A DNA stretch of 64,000 bases from an uncultured Clostridium sp. (GTDB lineage Bacteria > Bacillota > Clostridia > Christensenellales > CAG-138), in assembly GCA_964392455.1 (NCBI GenBank), contig CAYMPG010000001.1, forward strand, positions 8,050 through 72,049, in the 5' to 3' direction. Of this stretch, positions 28,898 through 54,456 are shown in pieces. The position numbers and the translations under genes were made by a program. Each line of letters starts with the position of its first letter. Within the stretch, counting starts at the first letter, position 1. Below the pieces are notes generated by a model, which had not been told where the DNA came from, made no database searches, and saw only the letters and a program-made list of their open reading frames with translations.

Positions 28898-28986
28898 GGA
28901 GCGGTATCGAAGTGGTCATAACGGGGCTGACTCGAAATCAGTTTGCGCGAAAGCGCACGTGGGTTCGAATCCCACCCGCTCCGCCA
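28898..28986 (+). tRNA. tRNA-Ser (anticodon CGA), type II, CCA encoded
   Basis: Acceptor GGAGCGG/CCGCTCC. Anticodon loop CTCGAAA. Variable arm GCGCGAAAGCGC. T arm GTGGG-TTCGAAT-CCCAC. Confidence 0.9.
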
Positions 28987-31862: not shown

Positions 31863-32273
31863 ATGTCAATTTCACTGGAATACGCTCTTGCCAATAAGGA
31901 ACAGCCTGCTGTTCTGTGCTGCCGTGCCGAGGGTGGCATCACCATCACCGAGCACAACCTTGAGGACCCCGCCATATTTGATGACCTGGTGGACAGCGGC
32001 CTGCTGGATCTTACCGGCGCACTGACCATCGGCCAGGTGCTCAATGCAAAGCTCACCGGCACCTTTGATTCCCTTACTCCCCTTACTGCCGATAAGGTAG
32101 AGGGTATAAATGAGCAGACTGACGAGCCCGAGGAGGCTGCAGCCGAAGCAGCTCCCGCAGCAGAGGTAGCTGTGGGCGGCGCTGTACAGGGCGCTGAGGT
32201 AAAGGTATGCGGCGGCGTACTGGTGCTCAATATTGCCGAGGGCAAGGGCATCCATATCGAGCTGCCTATCTGA
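31863..32273 (+). CDS. Acidic hypothetical protein (136 aa)
   Basis: AAAGGAG RBS, its own promoter region and a shared terminator. No family recognised. Confidence 0.5.
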   Translation: MSISLEYALANKEQPAVLCCRAEGGITITEHNLEDPAIFDDLVDSGLLDLTGALTIGQVLNAKLTGTFDSLTPLTADKVEGINEQTDEPEEAAAEAAPAAEVAVGGAVQGAEVKVCGGVLVLNIAEGKGIHIELPI

Positions 32274-32292
32274 TAAGGGCCAAATAAAGCAA

Positions 32293-32327
32293 AAAAGCGG
32301 CGCTGTTTAAAAGACAGCGCCGCTTTT
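32293..32327. terminator. Bidirectional terminator
   Basis: AAAAGCGGCGCTGT-7 nt-ACAGCGCCGCTTTT. Confidence 0.8.
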
Positions 32328-32338
32328 ATGTTGCTCTT

Positions 32339-33085
32339 TCAATATACTCTGACCAGAACGCGCAGCCGGCCCTTTTTGGTTTCCCGGTCTATTCCCTCGT
32401 ATATAAAGCGGCCCTTGCCTCTTACGGAGATGAGTGCGCCGGGGAAAAGAGCTGCGGAGGCGTTTTGCACAAGGCGGCTGTTTATAAATACCCGCCCCTG
32501 CTGTATCAGCTCCTTACCGCCGCTGCGGGATAGCTGATAGACGGCGGATATTATGGCATCCAGCCTTTCGGAGGCGATTATGGCGGAGGTGATGGGAGGG
32601 GGCTGGAGCAGCCCATCTGGCGGCTCAGACAGCGCACAGCGCACGGCGGTGCGTCTTACCTCACAAAGGGAATCTATTATATACGGCGCTATGGTCTCTA
32701 GGCAAAAGAGATACCCCACATTATCCAGTATCAGTATATCCCCCATTACCTCACGCCTTACGCCAAGCCCCATCAGTGCCCCAAGGAAATCCCTGTGGGT
32801 GAGGGCCTCTGCAAACTTCTGGGAAGCGGGGGCTATTTTTACGCATACTATGGGGCTGGGATAGGCGCAGCCGAAAAGCTCCTCACTGCCAAAGGCTGCA
32901 AGCTTGCGCTCGCCGTCCGGATATCCTGCGTGCAGCGAATAGGGCACGGGCAGCCTGAGGGTGCTTAACGTATCCTGCTCAGACAGGGTGAGAAACTCTG
33001 TATCCGTCCAGAAGCCCTGCCTGTCGGCACGGGCCGCCAGCTCGTCAAGGCGGTTTATAAGCTGCTGTTTTTCAGCGTCTGCCAT
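32339..33085 (-). CDS. ylmH: YlmH-like RNA-binding S4-domain protein
   Basis: HRDFLGALMGLGVRREVMGDI matches the B. subtilis YlmH core. C-terminal S4 domain present (ERLDAIIS...LIQQGRVFIN). The start overlaps the upstream gene by 31 nt. Confidence 0.8.
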   Translation of the reverse strand: MADAEKQQLINRLDELAARADRQGFWTDTEFLTLSEQDTLSTLRLPVPYSLHAGYPDGERKLAAFGSEELFGCAYPSPIVCVKIAPASQKFAEALTHRDFLGALMGLGVRREVMGDILILDNVGYLFCLETIAPYIIDSLCEVRRTAVRCALSEPPDGLLQPPPITSAIIASERLDAIISAVYQLSRSGGKELIQQGRVFINSRLVQNASAALFPGALISVRGKGRFIYEGIDRETKKGRLRVLVRVY

Positions 33086-35658
33086 ATGGTATAGCCTCCG
33101 TTATTGTGGGCACGCATATCCTCCATAAGCTGGGTGAGCTGACCGCATACCGTATCCACTTCTTCCCGGAATGCCCGGGCAGGTATACGCAGGGCGCCGC
33201 GGCCCAGCACTATAAGCTGCTCAAGGCCATCGGATGTGGCCACCCGCACCATGCCGGTGTTCTTTTTGAGCTGATCTGTGACCCGCTCGATGTATATGTC
33301 GGCTATTTCCGCTTCCCGGGTGTAAACGATATATATGCCGCCGTTTTTTTCCACCCTTTCCTCGCCGCCGCTGACCTTGTATGCATCAAAGACCAGTATG
33401 AGATTGCATTTTTTGTAGCCCTGATAGTTTACCAGCAGCCTTATAAGCGTCTCCCGGGCAAGGGCTATGCTTTCCCGGGCCATTGCTCTAAGGTCTTCCC
33501 AGGCGAAGATTATGTTATACCCGTCAACGAGCAGGTAGCTTTCCTCAGGATCCATTGCCTTGAGCATGGCCTGTGTATCGGCGGGCTGCTCAGGGCGCTT
33601 TCTCAGCAGGAATGTTCTGTCCTTTACGGGGCCATAGGTGCGCTCGTATATGGCCATAAGTGCCTCGTCAGTATCCGGCGTTATCCGGGAGACCGGGGGA
33701 GCAGATTCCGCCTCCTGCTTTGCAAGGTGTGGGATAAGCTGATTCCACTTTACCACAAACCCTGCACCATGGCTGCAAAATACCGAATCCGGAGAGTTTT
33801 CTGTATCTGCCTCCGGGTCATAGCCCAGCCTTGCTATTACGTCATCCGCATTGTGGCAGGGGCGATACCCTCCATGGGAAAGGGAGAGCCTGCCCAGCCC
33901 ACGGGTATATGAGGCGACCTCCCGTGCGTAGTCTGCCATTGTTTCCACGGGGGCGCTGCCTGTCAGCAGGGCAAGCTCCCCGGCAGATTCCGGCGGGTCT
34001 GTTTCCCCGTTCATGCGGCGTATATCAGTAATGGCACGCCCGAGGTTTTCCTGGGGCAGCTCAAGGCGAAAGTCGTAATATGGCTCAAGCAGCACTGATT
34101 TGGCCTGCATAAGCCCCTGACGCACCGCCCGGTAGGTGGCCTGACGGAAATCGCCTCCCTCGGTATGCTTAAGGTGGGCCTTGCCGCTGAGCAGGGTTAT
34201 ACGCATATCCGTAATTGGGGAGCAGGTGAGTACGCCCCGGTGCTGCTTTTCCCGAAGATGGGTAAGAATAAGGCGCTGCCAGTTTCTATCCAGAATATCC
34301 TCGCTGCAAACGCTGTCGAATACCAGCCCAGACCCTGCGGGAAGAGGCTCCAGCAGAAGCTGCACATGGGCAAAGTGCTTTAGCGGCTCATAATGGCCAA
34401 TGCCCTCAACGGGGCTTTCGATGGTTTCCTTATATAAAATAGTACCCGGGCCAAACTCCGCATCCAGAGCAAACCGCTCCTTTATCAGGGAGCGAAGCAC
34501 CTCGCTCTGTACCTGCCCCATAAGGCGGGCCTGTATTTCCCTGTGCTGCTCATCCCATACAAGGTGGAGCTGAGGATCTTCCTCCTGGAGCTTTTTCAGC
34601 TTTTGGTATGCTTCGGGGAGGTTCACCCCATCGGGAAAAAGCAGCCTGCAGGAAAGCACCGGCTCCAGCGCCGGCGGCTGATCATCCAGCTCAAAGCCAA
34701 GCCCCTGCCCGGGGTATGTGCGGCTAAGGCCGCATACGGCGCATATCATGCCCGCATCCGCCTGCTGTATGGTGGTAAATTTGGAGCCTGAGTATATCCT
34801 GAGCTGGTCTGCCTTTTCTTCCCAGAGGCCCTCATCGGTGGTGGTGGCGGTGTGGTTTGTGAGCAGGCCCTTTACGGGGAGACTGCCGCCTGTTATTTTC
34901 AGCCAGGTAAGCCGGTTGCTGCCATCGTAGGTGATTTTGAATACCCTTGCGCCAAATTGGGCCGGGTAGCTGCGGCTGCGGCAATAGCGGCACAGCCCAT
35001 GGAAAAACTCATCCACGCCATCCATCTTAAGCGCAGAGCCAAAATAAACGGGGAATACCTCCCGGGCTGCTATGCCCATGGCAAGCTGCTCATCCGACAG
35101 GCTGCCCTGCTCAAGAAAGGCATCCATAAGGTGCTCCGAGCACATGGCGGCGGCTTCGTGGAGGGCGGAGACGTCTGAAAAATCTACGCAACCCTCGCTT
35201 AACTGCTTCCTCAGCTCTGCCATCAGCTCAGGCCGGGCAGGCCCCGGCAGGTCTGATTTATTTACAAATATGAATACCGGCACGCCATGGCGCTCAAGGA
35301 GCCGCCACAGGGTGCGGGTGTGGGCCTGTATGCCCCCGCTTATTACCAGTATGGCATAATCCAGCACCTGGAGGGTGCGCTCGGTTTCGGTGGAAAAATC
35401 CACATGGCCCGGGGTGTCCAGCAGCGTGATGGTGGTATCCTCCAGCTCCATTACGGCCTGCTTTGAGAATATGGTGATGCCCCGCTCCTTTTCAAGGCCG
35501 TGGGTATCCAGAAATGCATTTTGATGATCCACCCGCCCAAGGCTTCTGAGGGCGCCTGCGGTATACAGCAGCCCTTCGGACAGGGTGGTCTTGCCGGCAT
35601 CCACATGGGCCAGCATACCGATGGTTATTCGCTTGCGGGAAGAAAAAGTATTATCCAT
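33055..35658 (-). CDS. Translational GTPase (TetM/TetO/EF-G-like, approx. 650 aa) fused to a C-terminal YacP/Rae1-type NYN ribonuclease domain (approx. 33058-33540)
   Basis: G1 AHVDAGKTT, G2 RGITI, G3 DTPGH, G4 NKSD. Domain V-like LLEPYYDFRLELPQE (compare TetM LLEPYLSFKIYAPQE). The C-terminus LLVDGYN...VFDA...EIADIYIE...VATSD..EQ...GALR aligns to Rae1/YacP, including the acidic residues. Start trimmed to ATG 35658. Confidence 0.85.
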   Translation of the reverse strand: MDNTFSSRKRITIGMLAHVDAGKTTLSEGLLYTAGALRSLGRVDHQNAFLDTHGLEKERGITIFSKQAVMELEDTTITLLDTPGHVDFSTETERTLQVLDYAILVISGGIQAHTRTLWRLLERHGVPVFIFVNKSDLPGPARPELMAELRKQLSEGCVDFSDVSALHEAAAMCSEHLMDAFLEQGSLSDEQLAMGIAAREVFPVYFGSALKMDGVDEFFHGLCRYCRSRSYPAQFGARVFKITYDGSNRLTWLKITGGSLPVKGLLTNHTATTTDEGLWEEKADQLRIYSGSKFTTIQQADAGMICAVCGLSRTYPGQGLGFELDDQPPALEPVLSCRLLFPDGVNLPEAYQKLKKLQEEDPQLHLVWDEQHREIQARLMGQVQSEVLRSLIKERFALDAEFGPGTILYKETIESPVEGIGHYEPLKHFAHVQLLLEPLPAGSGLVFDSVCSEDILDRNWQRLILTHLREKQHRGVLTCSPITDMRITLLSGKAHLKHTEGGDFRQATYRAVRQGLMQAKSVLLEPYYDFRLELPQENLGRAITDIRRMNGETDPPESAGELALLTGSAPVETMADYAREVASYTRGLGRLSLSHGGYRPCHNADDVIARLGYDPEADTENSPDSVFCSHGAGFVVKWNQLIPHLAKQEAESAPPVSRITPDTDEALMAIYERTYGPVKDRTFLLRKRPEQPADTQAMLKAMDPEESYLLVDGYNIIFAWEDLRAMARESIALARETLIRLLVNYQGYKKCNLILVFDAYKVSGGEERVEKNGGIYIVYTREAEIADIYIERVTDQLKKNTGMVRVATSDGLEQLIVLGRGALRIPARAFREEVDTVCGQLTQLMEDMRAHNNGGYTIWQTLKNSSL

Positions 35659-35664
35659 ATTTGA

Positions 35665-35673
35665 ATTGTACCA
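35665..35673 (-). promoter_or_regulatory. Extended -10 (TGGTACAAT) 6 nt upstream of the GTPase-NYN ATG; candidate leaderless promoter
   Basis: Reverse complement of 35665-35673. No SD sequence lies before ATG 35658. Confidence 0.35.
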
Positions 35674-35827
35674 TTTGAGAGCGGCAGGCCACAAGCCCAT
35701 TATTGGCGGGGGAGGGCAGACAGGATTGAGAGAATAAAAACAAAAATGTTACTTTATTCACAATGAACAAATAAAAAAATATGGTTTTTTTTGAAAATAC
35801 TCTTGAAATAGACCAGACAGTGTGTTA

Positions 35828-45176: not shown

Positions 45177-45881
45177 ATGAGCATAGCTGATAACTATATC
45201 CGCATAAAGGAGAACATAGCTTCAGCCTGTGCATTGGCAGGGCGCAGGCCGGAGGAGGTAAGGCTTATTGCCGTTACAAAATACGTGGATATCGGGCGCA
45301 TCGGGGAGGCCGTGGCTGCCGGGGCAAGGAGCGTAGGCGAAAACCGGGTGCAGGAATACCGGGAAAAGCAGGCTTTTTTCAATGATAACGGGCTGGATGT
45401 TCATTTGATTGGACAATTGCAGACAAATAAGGTAAAATACCTGGTAGGAAATGGCGTGCTCATTCAGTCTCTGGACAGGATGGAGCTTGCCGGGGAGATA
45501 AGCCGTGTAGCATCCAACAGGGGAGTGATACAGGATACCCTTGTGGAGGTGAATATAGGCGATGAGGCCCAAAAGGGCGGCATCAGAGTAGATGAGCTTA
45601 TCCCGTTTATAGAGGTAGTTTCCGCTATGCCTGGCATACGCATAAAGGGGCTCATGTGTGTTCCTCCGGCTGTGGGAGAGGATGGAGCACGGAGCTACTT
45701 TGCGGCAATGAGACGGCTTTTTGAGGATATTCGCAGCAGGAATATACCTAATGTGGATATGCTGGAGCTGTCCATGGGCATGAGCGGGGATTATAAAGCT
45801 GCAGTGCTGGAGGGCGCAACGATGGTACGGGTGGGAACGGCCATATTCGGGGCACGTCCGGCGGCAGGAGCGGGAGCGTAG
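45177..45881 (+). CDS. yggS: YggS/YlmE-family PLP-binding protein
   Basis: Motifs LIAVTKY, GENRVQE, HLIGQLQTNK and MGMSGD. Confidence 0.9.
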   Translation: MSIADNYIRIKENIASACALAGRRPEEVRLIAVTKYVDIGRIGEAVAAGARSVGENRVQEYREKQAFFNDNGLDVHLIGQLQTNKVKYLVGNGVLIQSLDRMELAGEISRVASNRGVIQDTLVEVNIGDEAQKGGIRVDELIPFIEVVSAMPGIRIKGLMCVPPAVGEDGARSYFAAMRRLFEDIRSRNIPNVDMLELSMGMSGDYKAAVLEGATMVRVGTAIFGARPAAGAGA

Positions 45882-45969
45882 AGAGAGACAGAGCCCGCTT
45901 TAATAATAAGTTTTTCTCCAAGCGCCAATTAAAAACCAAACTTTTTAATTGAAACGGAGGAAACGAACA

Positions 45970-46428
45970 ATGGCAAGATTGCTCAATAAGCTAATGGATT
46001 TCATCGGCATAGAAGATGCTGAAATGGACGACATCTACGAGGATGAGTACTTTGCAGATGATCGCACCGTAGCCGAGGATAATGTACTTAACCTTGGCAA
46101 TCGCGGCAGGAAAAAGACTGCTGCAGCAGGCAGCAGCAACGTGGTCAGCCTTCCCACGGCGGCCCCAATGAAGATGATGGTCTATCGTCCTGTAAGCTAT
46201 GAGGATACTCAGAACATCATCGATAATCTTAAGAGCCGCAAGCCCGTAATCGTAAACATGGAGGAGCTGGAAATCGACTGCGCTCAGCGTATACTCGACT
46301 TCATGGCCGGTGCGATTTACGCTCTGGACGGCACTATCTACAAAATTTCCCGCGGTATCTTTGTCGTAGCTCCCACCAACTATGACGTTATCGGCAACGA
46401 TGGCTATACCGATGTTGACGTAATCTAG
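45970..46428 (+). CDS. sepF: Cell division protein SepF
   Basis: Start at ATG 45970 (GGAGGA RBS). C-terminal SepF domain present (VYRPVSYEDTQNIIDNLKSRKPVIVNMEEL...FVVAP). Confidence 0.85.
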   Translation: MARLLNKLMDFIGIEDAEMDDIYEDEYFADDRTVAEDNVLNLGNRGRKKTAAAGSSNVVSLPTAAPMKMMVYRPVSYEDTQNIIDNLKSRKPVIVNMEELEIDCAQRILDFMAGAIYALDGTIYKISRGIFVVAPTNYDVIGNDGYTDVDVI

Positions 46429-46502
46429 ATACATCCGCAGCGGAGCATGGTGCGGGGCATACTGCCCCGCACAAATTCAATATCAACGGAGTAGAGCATA
46501 CT

Positions 46503-46709
46503 ATGACGATAAAGGATATAGCAAGCCGCAGGTTCAGCAGGGCCATCATGGGATATGACATCCGTGAGGTGGATGAATTTCTGGACGAGATAGCCAAGGA
46601 CCTTGAGCGCAGAGAGCAGGAGGTAAAAATGCTGCAGCTACGCAATGAGCTGCTCATAGAGCGGCTGGCGGCAAGCGGCATATCCCTTTCTTCTGATAAG
46701 GCAGAATAG
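46503..46709 (+). CDS. Short DivIVA-domain protein (68 aa)
   Basis: N-terminal DivIVA motif FSRAIMGYDIREVDEFLDEI followed by a short coiled-coil. Confidence 0.7.
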   Translation: MTIKDIASRRFSRAIMGYDIREVDEFLDEIAKDLERREQEVKMLQLRNELLIERLAASGISLSSDKAE

Positions 46710-46821: not shown

Positions 46822-49800
46822 ATGCTGCCAAACAGAACTTATAACGGCCTGACGGATAGAGCCTGCAAAGCCGCAGAGCTTAAAGAAGAGGCCATGCTTC
46901 AGGCGGAGCTTTCGGTAAGGGGGAACCGCCGCTGCCATCTTATGCTGGGGGCAGACAGGCGGCTGCTGATAGCTGCATACAAAAAAGCGGAGGCATCCGG
47001 AGCCACAGGTGCGCTGGATGCGCTCAGGCGGGATTTTCACGTGGTGGAAAGGGCCATGCTGGGCCTTGAGGAATGTGACAGGCTCAGGCTGCCGGTGCTT
47101 ATGCATGGCAGCAGGGCTGGGCTTCCCCGGGCCTATGATATTGCGGCCTGTCTTGTTGGGGGCAGGGATGGCAGGGTGGATGAAGGGGCGCTCAGCAGAT
47201 TTCTTGACGCATACCAGAGCGTTACGCCCCTTACCATGGCCGAGCTTGGGGCCCTTAAGGATATGCTGACTGCGGCGCTGATAAAGCTGCTGAGCGTGGA
47301 GTGCTCAAGGGCGCTGGATAGCCTGAAGGCGGAACAAAGCGCAGGGGAGGCTGCGGAGCAGCTAATAAAGATAGCGTCCCCCGGCAGATGCAGGGCCATA
47401 TTGGAAAGGCTTGATCCTGTAAATGACCCTGCCCTTACGGAGAGGCTGTATACCCTGCTCTCAGAAAGGGATATGGAAAGGGCCGTAGCCGAGCTCAGGG
47501 AGCGGCTGCGGCTTGAGGATCAGGATATAGAGCAGCTTTGCACAAAGGCACGAAATGAACGGGCACGCAGCCAAATCAGGGTGGAGAGCGCCATACACAG
47601 CCTGCGGGTAATAGCCGGCATGGACTGGGAGGCAGTATTTGAGCAGCACAGCCATGTGCATAGAGAGCTGTGCAGGGATACGGTATATTGCCGGATGGAT
47701 GCAAGGAGTCGTGGGTATTACCGCGCCTGCACAGAGCGGCTGGCTGCACGGCTTGGCGCTGCGGAAACGATAATAGCCCGGCAGGCGGTGCAGCTTGCAG
47801 AGGGGAAGGAGGGCAAGGAAGGTGAGGCCGGGTATTATCTGTTTTTGGATGGCAGAGAGAGGCTTTATGCCGCTCTTCGGCCGGATAAGAGGTTCAGAAA
47901 GCCTGTGGAGGGGCGCAGGCTCAGGTGGTTTGTAACGGCGGAGGTGGTGGTAATGCTGCTGCTTATATGGCTTGCTGCCACAGATGGCATAGGGCCGCTG
48001 GTGCTGTCCCTGATACCAAGCTGGAGCATAAGCAGCCTGCTGTGCGTCAGGGCCTTTATGGCGGGAACACCGGTAAGATATATTCCAAGGCTCGGGGAGG
48101 ATGAGCTGGGCCCTGAGCTTACGCTGGTGGTGATACCTGCGCTGATATGCAGCGAGGATACCCTGAGGACGGCTGTGGCGCAGCTGGAAAGGCATATGCT
48201 GGCATCCCGGCTGGAGCAGTGCAGATATGCGGTGCTTGGGGATTTTCCCGATGCTAATGAGCCGGAGCTGAAGGGAGAAAGGGAACTTATTCGCCTTGCA
48301 GGTGAGCTTGTAGATGGGCTGAATAAAAAATACCCTTCGGCACAGCCCCGCTTTTACTATCTGCATCGCTGCAGGGAGCTTAACAGGGCAGATGGCATAT
48401 ACATGGGCAGGGAACGCAAGCGTGGAGCCATATGCGACCTTGTGACGCTGATATCCCAGGGCAGGGCCGATGCATTCTGCTGCATCAGCAGCCCGCTGTC
48501 AGGGGATATAAAGTATTGCCTTACGCTGGATATTGATACTATCCTGCCTCCAGGTGGGGCAGGGGAGCTGATAGGCTGCATGGAGCATCCGCTGAACAGG
48601 CCAGAGGTATCCTCAGGCGTGGTAAGGGCAGGGTATGGCCTTATAGCTCCCCGCATGGCGGCTTCGCCACGGGGGGCTGCAAAGAGCCCCTTTGCTGGGC
48701 TGGTATCTGGCGAGCCGGGCATAGATGGGTACTTCCCCACAGGGCCGGAGTTTTATCAGGATGTATTCGGGTGCGGGCTCTTTGGAGGCAAGGGCATATT
48801 TGACCTGGCTGCATTTCGCGATACGGTAATGGAATGGATACCCGAAAACACCGTGCTGAGCCATGACCTGCTGGAGGGATGCTTCCTGCACGCAGGGTAT
48901 GCGGGAGATGTGACCCTGTTTGACAGCGAGCCCGCCAGCTTCATCTCCTGGTGGAGGCGGCAGCACAGGTGGGTGAGGGGGGACTGGCAGCTTTTGCCCT
49001 TTTTGTTTGATACTGTAAGGGATGCCCATGGGGTAAGGCGGGAAAATCCATTATCCATGCTGTCACGGCGGAAAATACTGGATAACCTCCGCCGCTCCAT
49101 GCTGCCCTGGGGCGTAATGTATACGGCGCTGCTCATACCCTATACGGGCTTTGGCTGGCACTGCCTGCTTGCGCTGCTGGCCCTGTGGGATGGGTTTGCC
49201 TTTGACCTTATCAGCCTGCCCTTTCGCATGGCTAATGCAAGGAACGCCGACCCTTCAGGCATGGTGAAGGATATGCTGCGTCCTGCACAAAGGGCGCTGT
49301 TGGATATAGTGACCCTGCCCTACGGGGCAAACAGATGCAGCTCCGCCCGCAACCGTACCCTGTACAGGGTATTTGTATCCCACAGGCATATGCTGGAATG
49401 GCAGACTGCAAATCAGTCAGCCGGGCGGCCAGGCGATATAAACGGCTATTATGGTGCGCTGTGCTTTAACCCTGCCATGGGTATAGTGATGGTGGCCGGG
49501 GCCATATTGGGCAAAACTCCGCTGTTTGCAGCGGCCCTTGGGGTGCTGTGGATAGGCATGCCTCTTATCATATGGGCGCTGGATGCCCCGTATCAAAGGG
49601 AAAGGCTGACAGATGCTGAGCGGGAGCTGCTTATGGATATTGCCCGGGGAACATGGGGGTTTTTCGACAGCTTCTGCACGGAGGAAAGCGGCTTCCTCCC
49701 TCCTGATAACTTTCAGCAGCACCCCAATAAGCGCCCTGCCATAAATACCTCGCCTACGAATATGGGCATGGGTATCATGGCAGCGCTGGCCGCATCAGAG

Positions 49801-52800
49801 CTTGGCATAATAAGCAGGAGCGCCGGTGCAGAGCGCATTGAGAGGGCCGTAAATACCATGGAACAGATGGAGAAATGGCACGGCCATCTTTACAACTGGT
49901 ATCGCACGGATACGCTGGAGGTGCTGCACCCAAGGTATATTTCCACGGTGGACAGCGGCAACCTGGCAGCATCGCTGCTTACTGCCGCCCAGGCCATGGA
50001 GGAGGCGGGGGAGAGGGGCCTTTCAAAAAGGCTGCGCGCCCTTGCCTATGGGATGGAATTTGCGCCCCTATATGACAGGGATAGAAGGCTTTTCCATATA
50101 GGCTACGATGGGGAAAGGCATGAGCTTTCTCAGGCCTGGTATGATCTGCTTGCATCGGAGGCAAGGCTTACGAGCCTTGTAGCAATAGCGCTGGGGCAGG
50201 TGGAATACAGGCACTGGTTCAGCCTGGGCAGGCTTATGGCGCCGGTGCAGGGCAGGAGCCTGGTATCCTGGAGCGGCACAATGTTTGAATACCTTATGCC
50301 CCTCATATTCACAGGGGCGGTGCCCGGCACCCTTATACGGGAAAGCTGCGACAGCGCCATCCGTGCCCAGCGCAGGTATTCCGGCGGGCAGATATGGGGC
50401 ATATCAGAGTCCGGCTACTATGCCTTTGACAGGGAAATGCGCTATCAGTATCGTGCCTTTGGTATGCGCTGCCTGAGCCTTACGGGGCTAAGGCAGGAGC
50501 GGGTAATATCCCCGTATTCCACGCTGCTTTCCCTGCCCCTTGCGCCCAAGGCTGCCCTTGCCAACCTTCAGCGGCTGAATGGGCTTGGTGCGCTGGGGCT
50601 GTATGGCATGTATGAGGCGATAGATTACGTTAAGGAGCGGCTGCCACAGGGTCAGGAGTATGAGATAGTAAAAAGCTACATGGCTCACCATCAGGGCATG
50701 GGCATTTGCTCAGTGGCAAATGTCCTGCTGAATGACGTATTGAGCGGATACTTTTGGCGTGTGCCGGAGCTGGGCGCTGTACGCATACTTAATGAGGAGC
50801 GTATTCCATCCTATGGCATAGGGGTAAAGGCCCTTCATTCCTGCGAAGGCAGAAATACCGGCACAAAGCGGCAATCAGCATACCGGCGGCGCATCATACG
50901 AGAGCCCCTTGAGGCGCCTGAGGGGCAATTGCTTACAAATGGCAGCTATACCCGCTTTATTACGGATTCCGGACAGGGCTTTTCAAAGCGGGGGGATATA
51001 ATGCTCACCCGCTGGCGGCCGGATTACCTTAGAGAGATCACAGGCGTTCATATTCTGGTAAGCTGCGGGGAAAGGGTATTTGACGCTGCGGAGGATGGGG
51101 AAACGGTATTTCTTCCCCACAAGGCGGAGTTTACCCGGCAGGAGGGCAGCATTTCCACCAAGCTGGAGGTATGCGTATCCCCAAGGCAGGATGGGGAGAT
51201 ATACAGGCTCACTGTGGCAAACCATGGCGAGGAGAAAAAAACGGTGGCCGTGGGAGGGTTCTTTGAGCCCTGCCTTTGCCCCTGGGCGGAAGAAGTGGCC
51301 CACCCCGGCTTTAACAGGCTTACAATAGATGCCATGCTGCGCCGGGATACGCTGATATTTGAAAAGCGGCCCAGAGAGGGAGCGCAGGGAAGGTATCTTT
51401 ATACCAGGCTCATATCATCGGGAGAGGTGATATATCAGGCGAATATGCTGGAGGCTGTGGGCCGGGGCAGGTCTCTTAAGCAGGCCATGGTCCAAAGGGT
51501 GCAGCAGCGGGAGGTATCAGCCCCTGTGCTGCCCTTTGCCGCCGCCCGCACTGAGCTTGACCTTGAGCCGGGGGAGGGGAAGGAGCTGTGGCTGCTTATG
51601 GGCTATGGAGACAGCCTGCAGCAGGCGCTGGAGGATTGCGAGGAGATGGCGGGAGACCTGGGAGAGTGCTTTGCCCTGGCAGATGCCCATGCCGCGGGCA
51701 TGCTTAACATGGCGGCCATAGAGCCTGGCAAGGCAGAGCTGTTTGAAAGAATAGGAGCAAGGGCGCTGCTGGGCATACCTCAAAAAGAGGGCACAGGCCG
51801 TACAGGGGGCCTTGCAGCACTGTGGAAGCACGGAATATCCGGGGACAGACCGGTACTGCTGGTGAGGATAAGCCGGGTAACAGAGCTGAGGATGCTGAAA
51901 TCTCTGGGCAAGCTGGCTGAATATATGGAGCAGCGGCTGTGCCCTGTGGATGTGGCGGCGGTGGGGATGTACCCAATGGAATACCGCAATGAGCTGAGGG
52001 AGCGCATGGAGGCTATTCCCGGCATAAGTGTGATACATGGCTATGAGCTCTGTGAAGGGGAATACGATGCGCTGCGGTCTGCTGCAATGCTGGAGATAGA
52101 CCCCTCCGTCAGCCTGAACAGGCAATTTACCCCAAAGCCCATAAGGTGGGGAGAATACCGAAGCTACTCAGGTGCGCTTCATCCGCCCCTTGATATACAA
52201 AGGCCGGAGCTGGACTTTTTCTGTGGGTATGGCGGCTTTAAGGCGGATGGGGAATACGTGATACTCCTTGAAAAGGGGCAGAGCACGCCCATGCCCTGGT
52301 GCAATGTTTTGGCCAATGAAGTATTTGGCTCCATAGTCAGCGAAGGTGGAGGAGGCCACACCTGGAGCGGAAACAGCCGGGAAAACAAGCTGACCCCATG
52401 GTACGATTCCCCCGTAAATGACCCCCAGGGCGAGTTTATGCTGATAACGGATGTAGATAGCGGGGAGACCTGTTCTCCCTGTGGAGGGCCATTGCAGCAG
52501 GGCCGTGTAATGATAGAGCATGGCTACGGCTACAGCCGGTTCACTACTGGGGAGGCGGGGTTACATACTGAGCTTACAGTATTTGTACACAGGGAAAAGC
52601 CTGTAAAGTACAGTCTGCTATCCCTGAAAAACCCCGGCACACACAGGCGAAGCATAAGCGTAATGTACGGCGTGGAATGGTGCCTTGGGGATATACCGCG
52701 GCCTGAGGCCATATTTACCCACCGGGAGGGCAGCTTTGTATTTGCGCGGAATTGCCGGCCCGGCGGTGATGGCCGGGAGGGGTACATATGGGCATCAGAG

Positions 52801-54456
52801 CCGGCAGAGGCCTGCTCTGATAGGCTTACCATATTCCAGGCAGGGTGGGATAGGTATGCCTTGGCGGATATTCATGGCCCTGGCCATGCTGCCTCTGCCC
52901 TGAGGGTGAGCATACAGCTCCAGCCGGGGGAGGAGAGGGAGATACTTTTCTGCCTTGGTGAGGATAGCCAAAAGGGGGCAGAGGAGGCTGTGGAGGTGGA
53001 TGTTCACAGGGAGCTGAGGCTTGTGCAGGAGCAGTGGCGGGAGAAGACAGGCGGCGTTTGCATACACACGCCGGATCCATCCATGGACAGGCTCATGAAC
53101 GGCAGGCTGATGTATCAGGTGTGGGCATCGAGGATACTGGGACGCTGCGGCTATTATCAGTGCGGCGGGGCCTATGGCTTCAGGGATCAGCTTCAGGATA
53201 TGCTGCCGCTGATGCATCACTTTCCCGGGCGGGCAAGGGAGCATATACTTCTTTGCGCCTCAAAGCAGTTTAAGGATGGGGATGTGCTGCACTGGTGGCA
53301 CAGTCCCAGCAGGGGAGTGCGTACCCATATAGCGGATGACAGGCTGTTTTTGCCGTATGTTGCAGCGGAGTATGTGGAGATGACAGGCGACAGGAGCATA
53401 CTGGAGCAAATGGTAACATACCTTGCCCATCGCCCGATACCTGAGGGAGCAAAGGACTTGTATAGTGATATGCAGGACAGCCGTGAGAGAGAAAGCCTGT
53501 ATCTTCACTGCGTAAGGGCGGTGGACAGCATACATACAGGCAGCCACGGCCTTCCCCTTATGGGCGGGGGCGACTGGAATGACGGCATGGACAGGGTGGG
53601 ACAGGCCGGCGGCGAGAGCGTATGGCTGGGCTGGTTTATGCTGGAGGTGCTGGAACGCATGGAGCGTATGGCAGGTATGCTCAATAAAAGGGCAGATGCA
53701 AGGCGCTTTGCGGCCCGCAGAAAGAAGCTGAAGGCGGACGTGGAAGCGGCATGGGATGGTGCCTGGTACAGGAGGGCGTATTATGGCGACGGAACGCCCC
53801 TTGGCTCCAGCGAAAACTCAATGTGCAGAATAGACTGCATATCCCAGGCCTGGGCAGCCATATGCGGCGGAGAAAGGGCGGAGACAGCCATGGATTCCCT
53901 CCTTGGTATGCTGTACGGGGAAAAGGATGGCATACTCAGGCTGCTTACGCCCCCATTTGAGCCGGAAGAAAGATCGCCCGGGTATATTCAGGCCTATATA
54001 CCGGGAGTAAGGGAAAACGGCGGCCAGTATACCCATGGGGCCATGTGGGCTGTAAAGGGTCTTTGCGCCATTAACAGGGGAGAAAGCGCACTTGCGCTGT
54101 TTGATGGGCTGAATCCTGTAAACCATGCCCTCACACGGGCCCAGGCGGCGGGATATATGGCCGAGCCCTATGCTGTGGCGGGGGACGTGTATTCAGAGCC
54201 AAATGCAGGCCGGGGCGGCTGGACGTGGTATACAGGGGCCGCGGGATGGATGTATAAGGTGTGCCTTGAGGATATGCTTGGGGTGCGGCGGCGGGGCAGC
54301 AGCCTGGAAATAGCCCCAACAGTGCCCTTTGAAGGGTATACCGTGGAATACCGCTACGGCAGCAGCAGCTATATACTGCATCTTGCCGGCAGCAGCCGGG
54401 GGAGAGTGGAGCTTGTGGATGACGGGCAGACCCATGAGGTGAATATGCTGCCCTGA
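46822..54456 (+). CDS. Cyclic beta-1,2-glucan synthase-like giant protein (2544 aa): GT84-type glycosyltransferase, central glucan-cyclisation-like region and C-terminal GH94-like phosphorylase domain
   Basis: GGGAGG RBS. GT motifs LTLDIDT, GRERKRGAICDL and QHRWVRGDWQ. Central motif PPDNFQQHPN...TSPTNMGM. C-terminal GGGDWNDGMD and GGQYTHGAMW. Several TM segments flank the GT domain. Confidence 0.8.
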   Translation: MLPNRTYNGLTDRACKAAELKEEAMLQAELSVRGNRRCHLMLGADRRLLIAAYKKAEASGATGALDALRRDFHVVERAMLGLEECDRLRLPVLMHGSRAGLPRAYDIAACLVGGRDGRVDEGALSRFLDAYQSVTPLTMAELGALKDMLTAALIKLLSVECSRALDSLKAEQSAGEAAEQLIKIASPGRCRAILERLDPVNDPALTERLYTLLSERDMERAVAELRERLRLEDQDIEQLCTKARNERARSQIRVESAIHSLRVIAGMDWEAVFEQHSHVHRELCRDTVYCRMDARSRGYYRACTERLAARLGAAETIIARQAVQLAEGKEGKEGEAGYYLFLDGRERLYAALRPDKRFRKPVEGRRLRWFVTAEVVVMLLLIWLAATDGIGPLVLSLIPSWSISSLLCVRAFMAGTPVRYIPRLGEDELGPELTLVVIPALICSEDTLRTAVAQLERHMLASRLEQCRYAVLGDFPDANEPELKGERELIRLAGELVDGLNKKYPSAQPRFYYLHRCRELNRADGIYMGRERKRGAICDLVTLISQGRADAFCCISSPLSGDIKYCLTLDIDTILPPGGAGELIGCMEHPLNRPEVSSGVVRAGYGLIAPRMAASPRGAAKSPFAGLVSGEPGIDGYFPTGPEFYQDVFGCGLFGGKGIFDLAAFRDTVMEWIPENTVLSHDLLEGCFLHAGYAGDVTLFDSEPASFISWWRRQHRWVRGDWQLLPFLFDTVRDAHGVRRENPLSMLSRRKILDNLRRSMLPWGVMYTALLIPYTGFGWHCLLALLALWDGFAFDLISLPFRMANARNADPSGMVKDMLRPAQRALLDIVTLPYGANRCSSARNRTLYRVFVSHRHMLEWQTANQSAGRPGDINGYYGALCFNPAMGIVMVAGAILGKTPLFAAALGVLWIGMPLIIWALDAPYQRERLTDAERELLMDIARGTWGFFDSFCTEESGFLPPDNFQQHPNKRPAINTSPTNMGMGIMAALAASELGIISRSAGAERIERAVNTMEQMEKWHGHLYNWYRTDTLEVLHPRYISTVDSGNLAASLLTAAQAMEEAGERGLSKRLRALAYGMEFAPLYDRDRRLFHIGYDGERHELSQAWYDLLASEARLTSLVAIALGQVEYRHWFSLGRLMAPVQGRSLVSWSGTMFEYLMPLIFTGAVPGTLIRESCDSAIRAQRRYSGGQIWGISESGYYAFDREMRYQYRAFGMRCLSLTGLRQERVISPYSTLLSLPLAPKAALANLQRLNGLGALGLYGMYEAIDYVKERLPQGQEYEIVKSYMAHHQGMGICSVANVLLNDVLSGYFWRVPELGAVRILNEERIPSYGIGVKALHSCEGRNTGTKRQSAYRRRIIREPLEAPEGQLLTNGSYTRFITDSGQGFSKRGDIMLTRWRPDYLREITGVHILVSCGERVFDAAEDGETVFLPHKAEFTRQEGSISTKLEVCVSPRQDGEIYRLTVANHGEEKKTVAVGGFFEPCLCPWAEEVAHPGFNRLTIDAMLRRDTLIFEKRPREGAQGRYLYTRLISSGEVIYQANMLEAVGRGRSLKQAMVQRVQQREVSAPVLPFAAARTELDLEPGEGKELWLLMGYGDSLQQALEDCEEMAGDLGECFALADAHAAGMLNMAAIEPGKAELFERIGARALLGIPQKEGTGRTGGLAALWKHGISGDRPVLLVRISRVTELRMLKSLGKLAEYMEQRLCPVDVAAVGMYPMEYRNELRERMEAIPGISVIHGYELCEGEYDALRSAAMLEIDPSVSLNRQFTPKPIRWGEYRSYSGALHPPLDIQRPELDFFCGYGGFKADGEYVILLEKGQSTPMPWCNVLANEVFGSIVSEGGGGHTWSGNSRENKLTPWYDSPVNDPQGEFMLITDVDSGETCSPCGGPLQQGRVMIEHGYGYSRFTTGEAGLHTELTVFVHREKPVKYSLLSLKNPGTHRRSISVMYGVEWCLGDIPRPEAIFTHREGSFVFARNCRPGGDGREGYIWASEPAEACSDRLTIFQAGWDRYALADIHGPGHAASALRVSIQLQPGEEREILFCLGEDSQKGAEEAVEVDVHRELRLVQEQWREKTGGVCIHTPDPSMDRLMNGRLMYQVWASRILGRCGYYQCGGAYGFRDQLQDMLPLMHHFPGRAREHILLCASKQFKDGDVLHWWHSPSRGVRTHIADDRLFLPYVAAEYVEMTGDRSILEQMVTYLAHRPIPEGAKDLYSDMQDSRERESLYLHCVRAVDSIHTGSHGLPLMGGGDWNDGMDRVGQAGGESVWLGWFMLEVLERMERMAGMLNKRADARRFAARRKKLKADVEAAWDGAWYRRAYYGDGTPLGSSENSMCRIDCISQAWAAICGGERAETAMDSLLGMLYGEKDGILRLLTPPFEPEERSPGYIQAYIPGVRENGGQYTHGAMWAVKGLCAINRGESALALFDGLNPVNHALTRAQAAGYMAEPYAVAGDVYSEPNAGRGGWTWYTGAAGWMYKVCLEDMLGVRRRGSSLEIAPTVPFEGYTVEYRYGSSSYILHLAGSSRGRVELVDDGQTHEVNMLP

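Follow-up and report, generated by a model that had tools for sequence, protein, structure and literature searches.

A clostridial TetM-like GTPase fused to a Rae1/YacP-type NYN nuclease: a candidate ribosome-rescue endonuclease with a clade-specific ylmH partner

The minus strand of a 64-kb stretch of DNA from an uncultured Clostridium sp. (contig CAYMPG010000001.1; the whole analysed stretch is hereafter called the window, and all coordinates are positions in it) carries a gene in which an EF-G-type translational GTPase is joined to a Rae1/YacP-type NYN nuclease, followed on the same strand by an overlapping homologue of ylmH. We propose that the fusion protein docks through its GTPase on ribosomes that are stalled or collided and there cuts mRNA as a Rae1-like endonuclease, a proposal to which we give even chances; in the clade of the window, an operon shared with YlmH suggests coordinated rescue.

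It should be stressed that the window protein is a further member of a catalogued clostridial family and not a new kind of system. TetM-like/NYN_YacP fusions in Clostridia were reported and placed in the Tet subfamily by Atkinson 2015 (BMC Genomics, PMC4342817), and "TetM-NYN_YacP fusion proteins" of some Clostridia by Matelska et al. 2017 (NAR, PMC5499597), where the link with tetracycline resistance was left open. As far as the passages of the two papers on these fusions go, their architecture and taxonomic range are the same as here, and the window protein itself shows no difference; the overlapping ylmH, the domain IV loop and the extension after domain V described below are absent from those passages. 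Within the papers searched, the following appear to be new: the overlapping ylmH of a single clade, a domain IV loop that is invariant and not of the Tet type, the conservation of the extension behind domain V, and the fit of the fusion with the 2025-2026 collision model of Rae1.

Architecture, integrity and distribution of the fusion

The open reading frame (ORF) 33055..35700 on the minus strand encodes 881 amino acids (aa) when read from its first ATG (35700) and 867 aa when read from the ATG at 35658. The latter is the likelier start because the nearest homologues have 867 aa and begin at the equivalent ATG; the database entry for the fusion (P0001) uses the upstream ATG and includes window positions 35659-35700 (-). 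No obvious Shine-Dalgarno sequence was found at either start, and the end coordinate of 35673, given in an earlier note on this DNA, agrees with neither. The same note had described a single uninterrupted 867-codon ORF comprising a complete GTPase and a C-terminal nuclease domain, and this was confirmed by the ORF together with a Pfam scan of the domain borders. The scan recovered (in the numbering of the 881-aa form) GTP_EFTU at 24-239 (2e-44), EFG_III at 347-417 (1.3e-5, just under the gathering score), EFG_IV at 420-534 (8e-18), EFG_C at 536-617 (2e-16) and NYN_YacP at 723-864 (1.3e-43; 149.3 bits for PF05991 versus a gathering score of 24.6), as well as the S4 domain of the neighbouring gene product.

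The GTPase motifs are intact, as are all five domains of the EF-G type. Residue conservation was computed over 77 aligned family members, among which the catalytic His85, located within G3, is invariant. In the AlphaFold model (mean predicted local distance difference test score, pLDDT, of 79.5 for the whole protein), residues 1 to about 600 form a GTPase body with an EF-G-like fold, which was matched by Foldseek to EF-G structures.

The C-terminal domain is similar to Bacillus subtilis Rae1/YacP (5MQ8/5MQ9) with an E-value of 1.9e-24, and the LLVDGYN, VFDA, E-x-AD and VATSD motifs are all present. Residues D712, D758, D787 and D810, aligned to D7, D53, D81 and D104 of B. subtilis Rae1, are conserved in 77/77 members, and N715 is likewise invariant. 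D712 and D787 are thus the counterparts of the pair mutated in the catalytically dead D7N D81N variant of Rae1 (PMC10351889). The NYN domain was modelled with pLDDT above 90, and comparison of the nuclease model with 5MQ9_A in Foldseek gave a root-mean-square deviation of 1.7 A, a target-normalised TM score of 0.79 and 35% identity over 144 columns; no other structural match to the isolated C-terminal model was found by Foldseek at an E-value below 0.001. The nuclease has thus retained all of its catalytic aspartates and, in the model, the Rae1 fold. The earlier assignment of this domain to Rae1/YacP with its acidic residues retained is therefore borne out by the PF05991 score, the E-value and the invariant aspartates, and neither a lack of an NYN/YacP score nor a loss of catalytic acids was observed.

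A conserved extension followed by a tether of about 55 residues, flexible according to the model, connects the two halves. Residues C601, C628 and H630, lying in or around the extension that follows domain V (33706-33867 (-), aa 598-651), are nearly invariant and may, as a guess, form a Cys/Cys/His metal site. For aa 604-651 no fold match was found, and the confidence of the model was low when this segment was predicted alone. Within the linker, disorder is predicted at residues 652-662 and 678-692, where pLDDT falls below 50 and the sequence is poorly conserved.

For the survey of relatives, in which one genome per species was used, 333 species with a matching locus were found, and locus counts were taken from the 80 best of them, which belong to Oscillospirales- and Lachnospirales-type Clostridia. 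In 80/80 of these loci, one unbroken ORF of 850-965 aa covers both halves, and the same Pfam architecture was found in all 120 best database proteins. Complete genomes with the fusion include those of Lawsonibacter faecis, Faecalicatena orotica and Agathobacter rectalis. When the last 271 residues were compared with 1.84 billion cluster representatives (50% identity), 349 matches at an E-value of 1e-30 or better were obtained, the top 150 of which are all fusions or fragments of fusions. The genome survey proposed in the earlier note has thus shown GTPase-NYN fusions to be widespread. A frameshift or an assembly artefact joining two separate genes, which that note had named as a possible refutation, is practically negligible as an explanation: the ORF is intact in all 80 independent genomes, thousands of database entries share the Pfam architecture, the conserved motifs of the extension and the linker bridge the junction of the two halves, and no point supporting an artefact was found. 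The E-values and the conservation across the 80 genomes are far beyond chance.

In the neighbour-joining (NJ) tree, the fusions form deep, well-separated clades across many genera of Clostridia. As far as the NJ tree itself goes, this suggests that the family is old. A second, free-standing NYN gene was found neither in the window nor in 1.15 Mb of fetched loci (these being loci only and not whole genomes). One short database protein considered as a free Rae1 relative (P0231) was rejected as a fragment of a fusion, because it carries the linker motif of the fusions, and four further short representatives (P0247, P0251, P0265 and P0271) are ambiguous between a free Rae1 relative and a fusion fragment.

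The domain IV loop and the question of tetracycline protection

Annotation pipelines routinely label the fusion a "translation factor GTPase family protein" or a TetM family protein, and the name TetM/W/O/S family is also in use. The names raise the possibility that the fusion is a ribosomal protection protein of the tetracycline type, whose GTPase clears the drug from the A site and whose nuclease is an accessory or a second resistance mechanism, as suggested in the passage of Atkinson 2015 on the fusions; as stated above, the assignment to the Tet subfamily comes from the same source. Several similarities point in this direction. The fusion resembles Tet(M) and Tet(O) in having a five-domain EF-G-like GTPase with motifs G1-G4 and a similar length as far as domain V, the NCBIfam model that it matches best is tet_protect (NF012153), with an end-to-end alignment (residues 25-611 in the 881-aa form versus 1-613 of 614), and Tet(O) and Tet(M) are the top sequence matches in the PDB.

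However, the score of 385.3 bits is half of the curated NF012153 cut-off of 775, the Tet(M), Tet(W), Tet(Q) and Otr(A) subfamily models also score far below their cut-offs, and the PDB search gives similar scores for Tet(O), Tet(M) and EF-G (214, 213 and 211 bits, respectively). Loop III of domain IV is functionally the most important element of Tet(M), displacing tetracycline (PMC4750697). In the fusion it is replaced by an unrelated, family-invariant loop, H495-x-KHTEGGDFR, which aligns without gaps to loop III of Tet(M); the aligned segment reads AHLKHTEGGDFR, unlike the LYYSPVSTPADFR of Tet(M)/Tet(O), and the Tet-type loop (L505-YYSPVS in Tet(M)) is not present. Within the fusion family the domain IV tip does not vary, yet it differs from those of both Tet(M) and EF-G. 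Furthermore, instead of the short C-terminal helix of Tet(M)/Tet(O), the fusion has the longer conserved extension, the linker and the nuclease.

The similarity to EF-G consists in the fold (Foldseek E-value of about 1e-50), the G motifs and, in a by-eye alignment, the location of H495 at the position of the domain IV histidine of EF-G. The fusion differs from EF-G in its shorter G' insertion and its domain IV tip, and its scores fall far short of the EF-G family cut-offs.

The genomic settings likewise argue against a resistance gene. Tet genes are usually carried by conjugative transposons or plasmids, whereas the fusion genes stand in varied chromosomal settings with variable, housekeeping-like neighbours. 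When 70 neighbours on the downstream side and 63 on the upstream side were scanned with Pfam, no recurrent partner gene and no recurring mobile-element or resistance context emerged. Few relevant records came from plasmid and phage collections. The fusion-length matches in a plasmid collection are on records of 250-520 kb typed as non-mobilizable, and those in a phage collection are unannotated "Bacteriophage sp." contigs; the other plasmid and phage matches span the NYN half only, like free YacP genes. One of the plasmid records, the 518-kb "plasmid 12" of Monoglobus pectinilyticus (L089, NZ_OY725736.1), carries secA and ssb besides the fusion gene, and it looks like a piece of a chromosome or a chromid. 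A defence-system reading was also considered and set aside, as PADLOC gave no match for the fusion or for YlmH.

Taking into account the loop, the scores, the settings and the deep NJ clades that suggest an old family, the fusion is probably not a tetracycline protection protein, and we regard such a function as very unlikely. The point has a practical side: gut Clostridia carry the family in abundance, and its members are routinely given the label of tetracycline-resistance genes, so that resistome counts would be corrected if a housekeeping role in rescue proved true.

The overlapping ylmH gene and a model of ribosome rescue

The gene following the fusion encodes a true homologue of YlmH, an RqcP-like factor of ribosome-associated quality control (RQC) that is bound to the 50S subunit (PMC11317155). 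YlmH characteristically binds the complex of 50S and peptidyl-tRNA and supports alanine tailing by RqcH. Its product matches PF17774 (YlmH_RBD; 47.2 versus 23) and PF01479 (S4; 26.7 versus 22.8), and it is collinear with B. subtilis YlmH (8S1P_V, from a 50S complex; E-value of 1.2e-17, residues 28-244 versus 34-252). The stop codon of the fusion (TAA, 33057-33055) lies beyond the ATG of ylmH (33085-33083), which confirms the previously noted overlap of 31 nucleotides (nt) with a YlmH-like S4 gene. This overlap, the Shine-Dalgarno site inside the fusion ORF and the strong terminator-like hairpin behind ylmH (Table 1) point to a two-gene operon, and in the clade of the window ylmH is accordingly predicted to be co-transcribed, and is probably translationally coupled, with the fusion. 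Upstream of the fusion no RNA leader or attenuator was found, and the only Rfam match above the gathering score in the window is a distant tRNA gene (28898-28983 (+)).

The linkage is a trait of one lineage and not of the fusion family. Among the 80 species-level loci, ylmH follows the fusion in three (L001, L002 and L007) and is absent in 77, and of the 70 downstream neighbours in the Pfam scan only 2 are YlmH. Three further cases came from contigs with remoter relatives of the window protein: that of P0032, whose fusion is 65% identical to the window protein and overlaps ylmH by 28 nt; that of P0070 (57% identical, overlap of 19 nt); and that of the YlmH homologue P0363, which lies downstream of a fusion with an overlap of 28 nt. 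On the contigs of P0055 and P0106 there is no ylmH beside the fusion. In the NJ tree, all six ylmH-linked cases included fall into one clade, to which the unlinked P0055 is sister (the fusion beside P0363 is outside the tree). The gene order and an overlap of 19-31 nt are kept in 7/7 clade members checked (the window and the L001, L002, L007, P0032, P0070 and P0363 loci), across which identity falls to 56% for the fusion and to 51% for YlmH. The adjacency, whose conservation in relatives the earlier note had made a test of its proposal, is therefore missing in most relatives and retained in each checked member of the clade of the window itself.

It was also correctly observed earlier that ylmE, sepF and divIVA stand apart, at 45177-46709, without ylmH among them. 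To call ylmH relocated was, however, an overstatement, since it is also found away from sepF, and without an adjoining fusion, in other Oscillospirales-type contigs. In L086 (5001-5744) and L087 (5001-5735), whose YlmH homologues (58-60% identity) adjoin neither sepF nor a fusion, it follows a conserved series of PHP, RpiB, ApbE, NusG_II and heptaprenyl-diphosphate-synthase-I genes, which represents a second recurrent context outside the division cluster, and a position outside this cluster is thus not special to the window genome.

These data bear on whether the adjacency means anything. It may be the product of one ancestral rearrangement kept by operon inertia, with the fusion working alone as it does elsewhere. 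That the linked cases are few and come from one clade with an unlinked sister, that YlmH is so rare among the downstream neighbours, and that ylmH occupies another unrelated context in related contigs all fit this explanation. Nevertheless, the overlap and order were held in every clade member checked while both proteins diverged considerably, and both products are related to ribosome rescue by homology. We consider an adjacency without functional meaning a serious contender, slightly short of an even chance. In this clade, the operon suggests a possible coordination of rescue triggered by the nuclease with the YlmH-assisted clearing of 50S subunits, which is a modest new hint that cleavage of mRNA can go together with RQC.

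The proposed function of the fusion draws on both of its halves. EF-G-family factors occupy the factor-binding site of the ribosome, with domain IV in the A site. Rae1, for its part, is characterised by translation-dependent cleavage of mRNA upstream of stalled ribosomes, and it also generates substrates for transfer-messenger RNA (tmRNA) after ribosome collisions; the premise that Rae1 cuts mRNA in the A site, on which the earlier note relied, is outdated, since the authors who had proposed it have withdrawn it. In our model, the GTPase half would dock in this same manner, and this mode of docking would select stalled or collided ribosomes. The tethered nuclease would then cut the mRNA near the entry side of the docked ribosome, the hydrolysis of GTP would release the factor and time its release, and the cut message would yield non-stop ribosomes for tmRNA or RQC. 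The mRNA entry side would lie on the same side of the ribosome as the A site and the factor site, and when two ribosomes collide, the entry side of the trailing one would face the tail of the stalled one; given this geometry, a factor docked on the trailing ribosome would allow its tethered nuclease to reach the stretch that is cut by free Rae1.

Comparison with known systems places the model among rescue pathways. With B. subtilis Rae1 the fusion shares the NYN_YacP domain (about 35% identity), the catalytic aspartates, the fold and an expected action with the ribosome. Rae1, however, is a free protein of about 170 aa that binds the ribosome transiently, whereas the corresponding domain of the fusion is covalently tethered to a GTPase of about 600 aa; unlike Rae1/YacP, the fusion is not encoded in a cysS-mrnC-yacO-yacP operon, and its neighbours are unrelated. 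Escherichia coli SmrB and yeast Cue2 resemble the fusion in the role proposed here, in that they initiate rescue by cutting mRNA where ribosomes have stalled or collided; they have the SMR fold in place of NYN, recognise the disome interface and lack a GTPase module. With Hbs1-Dom34/Pelota and other A-site factors delivered by GTPases, the fusion would share the logic of a translational GTPase bringing an effector to a stalled ribosome, with GTP hydrolysis gating a step. Those are, however, two proteins with a GTPase of the EF-Tu type and an effector that is not a nuclease, whereas the fusion combines an EF-G-type GTPase and a nuclease in one chain.

Another reading assigns the nuclease a target in ribosomal RNA (rRNA) or tRNA rather than in mRNA, with a function in ribosome maturation or in the inactivation or recycling of damaged or idle ribosomes, e.g., during sporulation or starvation. 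NYN_YacP was first tied to the processing of rRNA and tRNA because it shares an operon with mrnC and yacO (in the relevant passages of Matelska 2017 and Atkinson 2015), a nuclease held near the decoding and GTPase centres would also be close to 16S and 23S rRNA, and YlmH has been discussed as a possible ribosome biogenesis factor. The long flexible tether, however, suggests a target at some distance from the docking site, and no rRNA-processing genes recur nearby. We judge this reading unlikely.

Several points weigh against a mRNA endonuclease acting in ribosome rescue. The mechanism that we infer is coherent and possible, but it leaves room for the rRNA or tRNA target just discussed. No experimental study of a member of the fusion family turned up in full-text literature searches, in agreement with the statement of the earlier note that no characterised example was known; the architecture itself had already been published in the passages cited above. 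Independence of the RQC route (RqcH with RqcP/YlmH) from the Rae1/tmRNA route has been reported for B. subtilis (PMC13622287), and the earlier suggestion that YlmH handles the resulting 50S complexes is therefore a conjecture. Moreover, outside one clade there is no ylmH link and no conserved neighbour, so that the genomic context gives no general support for a role in rescue.

The GTPase-docked mRNA endonuclease may be taken one step further, to a natural, trappable form of Rae1 and a GTP-gated bacterial no-go-decay factor that would dock on a trailing collided ribosome, or on a stalled one with an accessible A site, and swing its nuclease onto the mRNA between the ribosomes, the coupling with YlmH linking the mRNA-cutting and 50S-clearing routes. 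We put forward this fuller version tentatively and think it rather doubtful. According to a 2026 preprint, there is no ribosome-bound structure of Rae1, because its binding is transient. The fusion could be locked on ribosomes by a non-hydrolysable GTP analogue or by a mutation of the catalytic histidine, which would provide a view of the position of the nuclease and of the target that it cuts.

Feature coordinates and neighbouring genes

Table 1. Features of the fusion gene, its ylmH neighbour and the separate division genes in the window
Feature	Position	Strand	Description
Fusion gene	33055..35658	-	867 codons plus stop; order: translational GTPase (G, II, III, IV, V), conserved extension, linker, NYN_YacP nuclease
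G domain, aa 10-225	34984..35631	-	G1 AHVDAGKT, G3 DTPGH and G4 NKxD invariant in 77/77 family members
Domain IV, aa 406-520	34099..34443	-	Pfam EFG_IV
Domain IV loop H495-x-KHTEGGDFR505	34144-34176	-	Family-invariant; position of Tet(M) loop III (LYYSPVSTPADFR)
Domain V (EFG_C), aa 522-603	33850..34095	-	Pfam
Conserved C-terminal extension, aa 604-651 (about 45 aa)	33706..33849	-	Helix, beta-hairpin DSVFCSHGAGFxVxW, helix
Linker, aa 652-707 (about 55 aa)	33538..33705	-	Variable, predicted largely disordered; one conserved helix ELxAIFERTYGP
Rae1/YacP-type NYN nuclease, aa 708-851	33106..33537	-	D712, D758, D787, D810 invariant
ylmH homologue, 248 aa	32339..33085	-	N-terminal domain, YlmH_RBD, S4; overlaps the fusion ORF by 31 nt
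ylmH Shine-Dalgarno site GGAGG	33095..33099	-	9 nt upstream of the ylmH ATG, within the 3' end of the fusion ORF
Intrinsic-terminator-like hairpin	32283..32327	-	14-bp stem, 8 GC pairs, T-rich tail; 12 nt past the ylmH stop
ylmE	45177-45881	+	Context, outside the operon
sepF	45949-46428	+	Context, outside the operon
DivIVA N-terminal ORF, 68 aa	46503-46709	+	Covers positions 2-56 of the 131-position Pfam model

Just past the operon terminator, on the opposite strand, there is an ORF for an acidic protein of 136 aa with no Pfam match (31863-32273 (+)). Directly after the short divIVA-like gene lies an ORF of 2544 aa (46822-54456 (+)) with GH94 catalytic, supersandwich and glucoamylase-like domains, and in this composition its predicted product resembles a cyclic beta-1,2-glucan synthase or phosphorylase.

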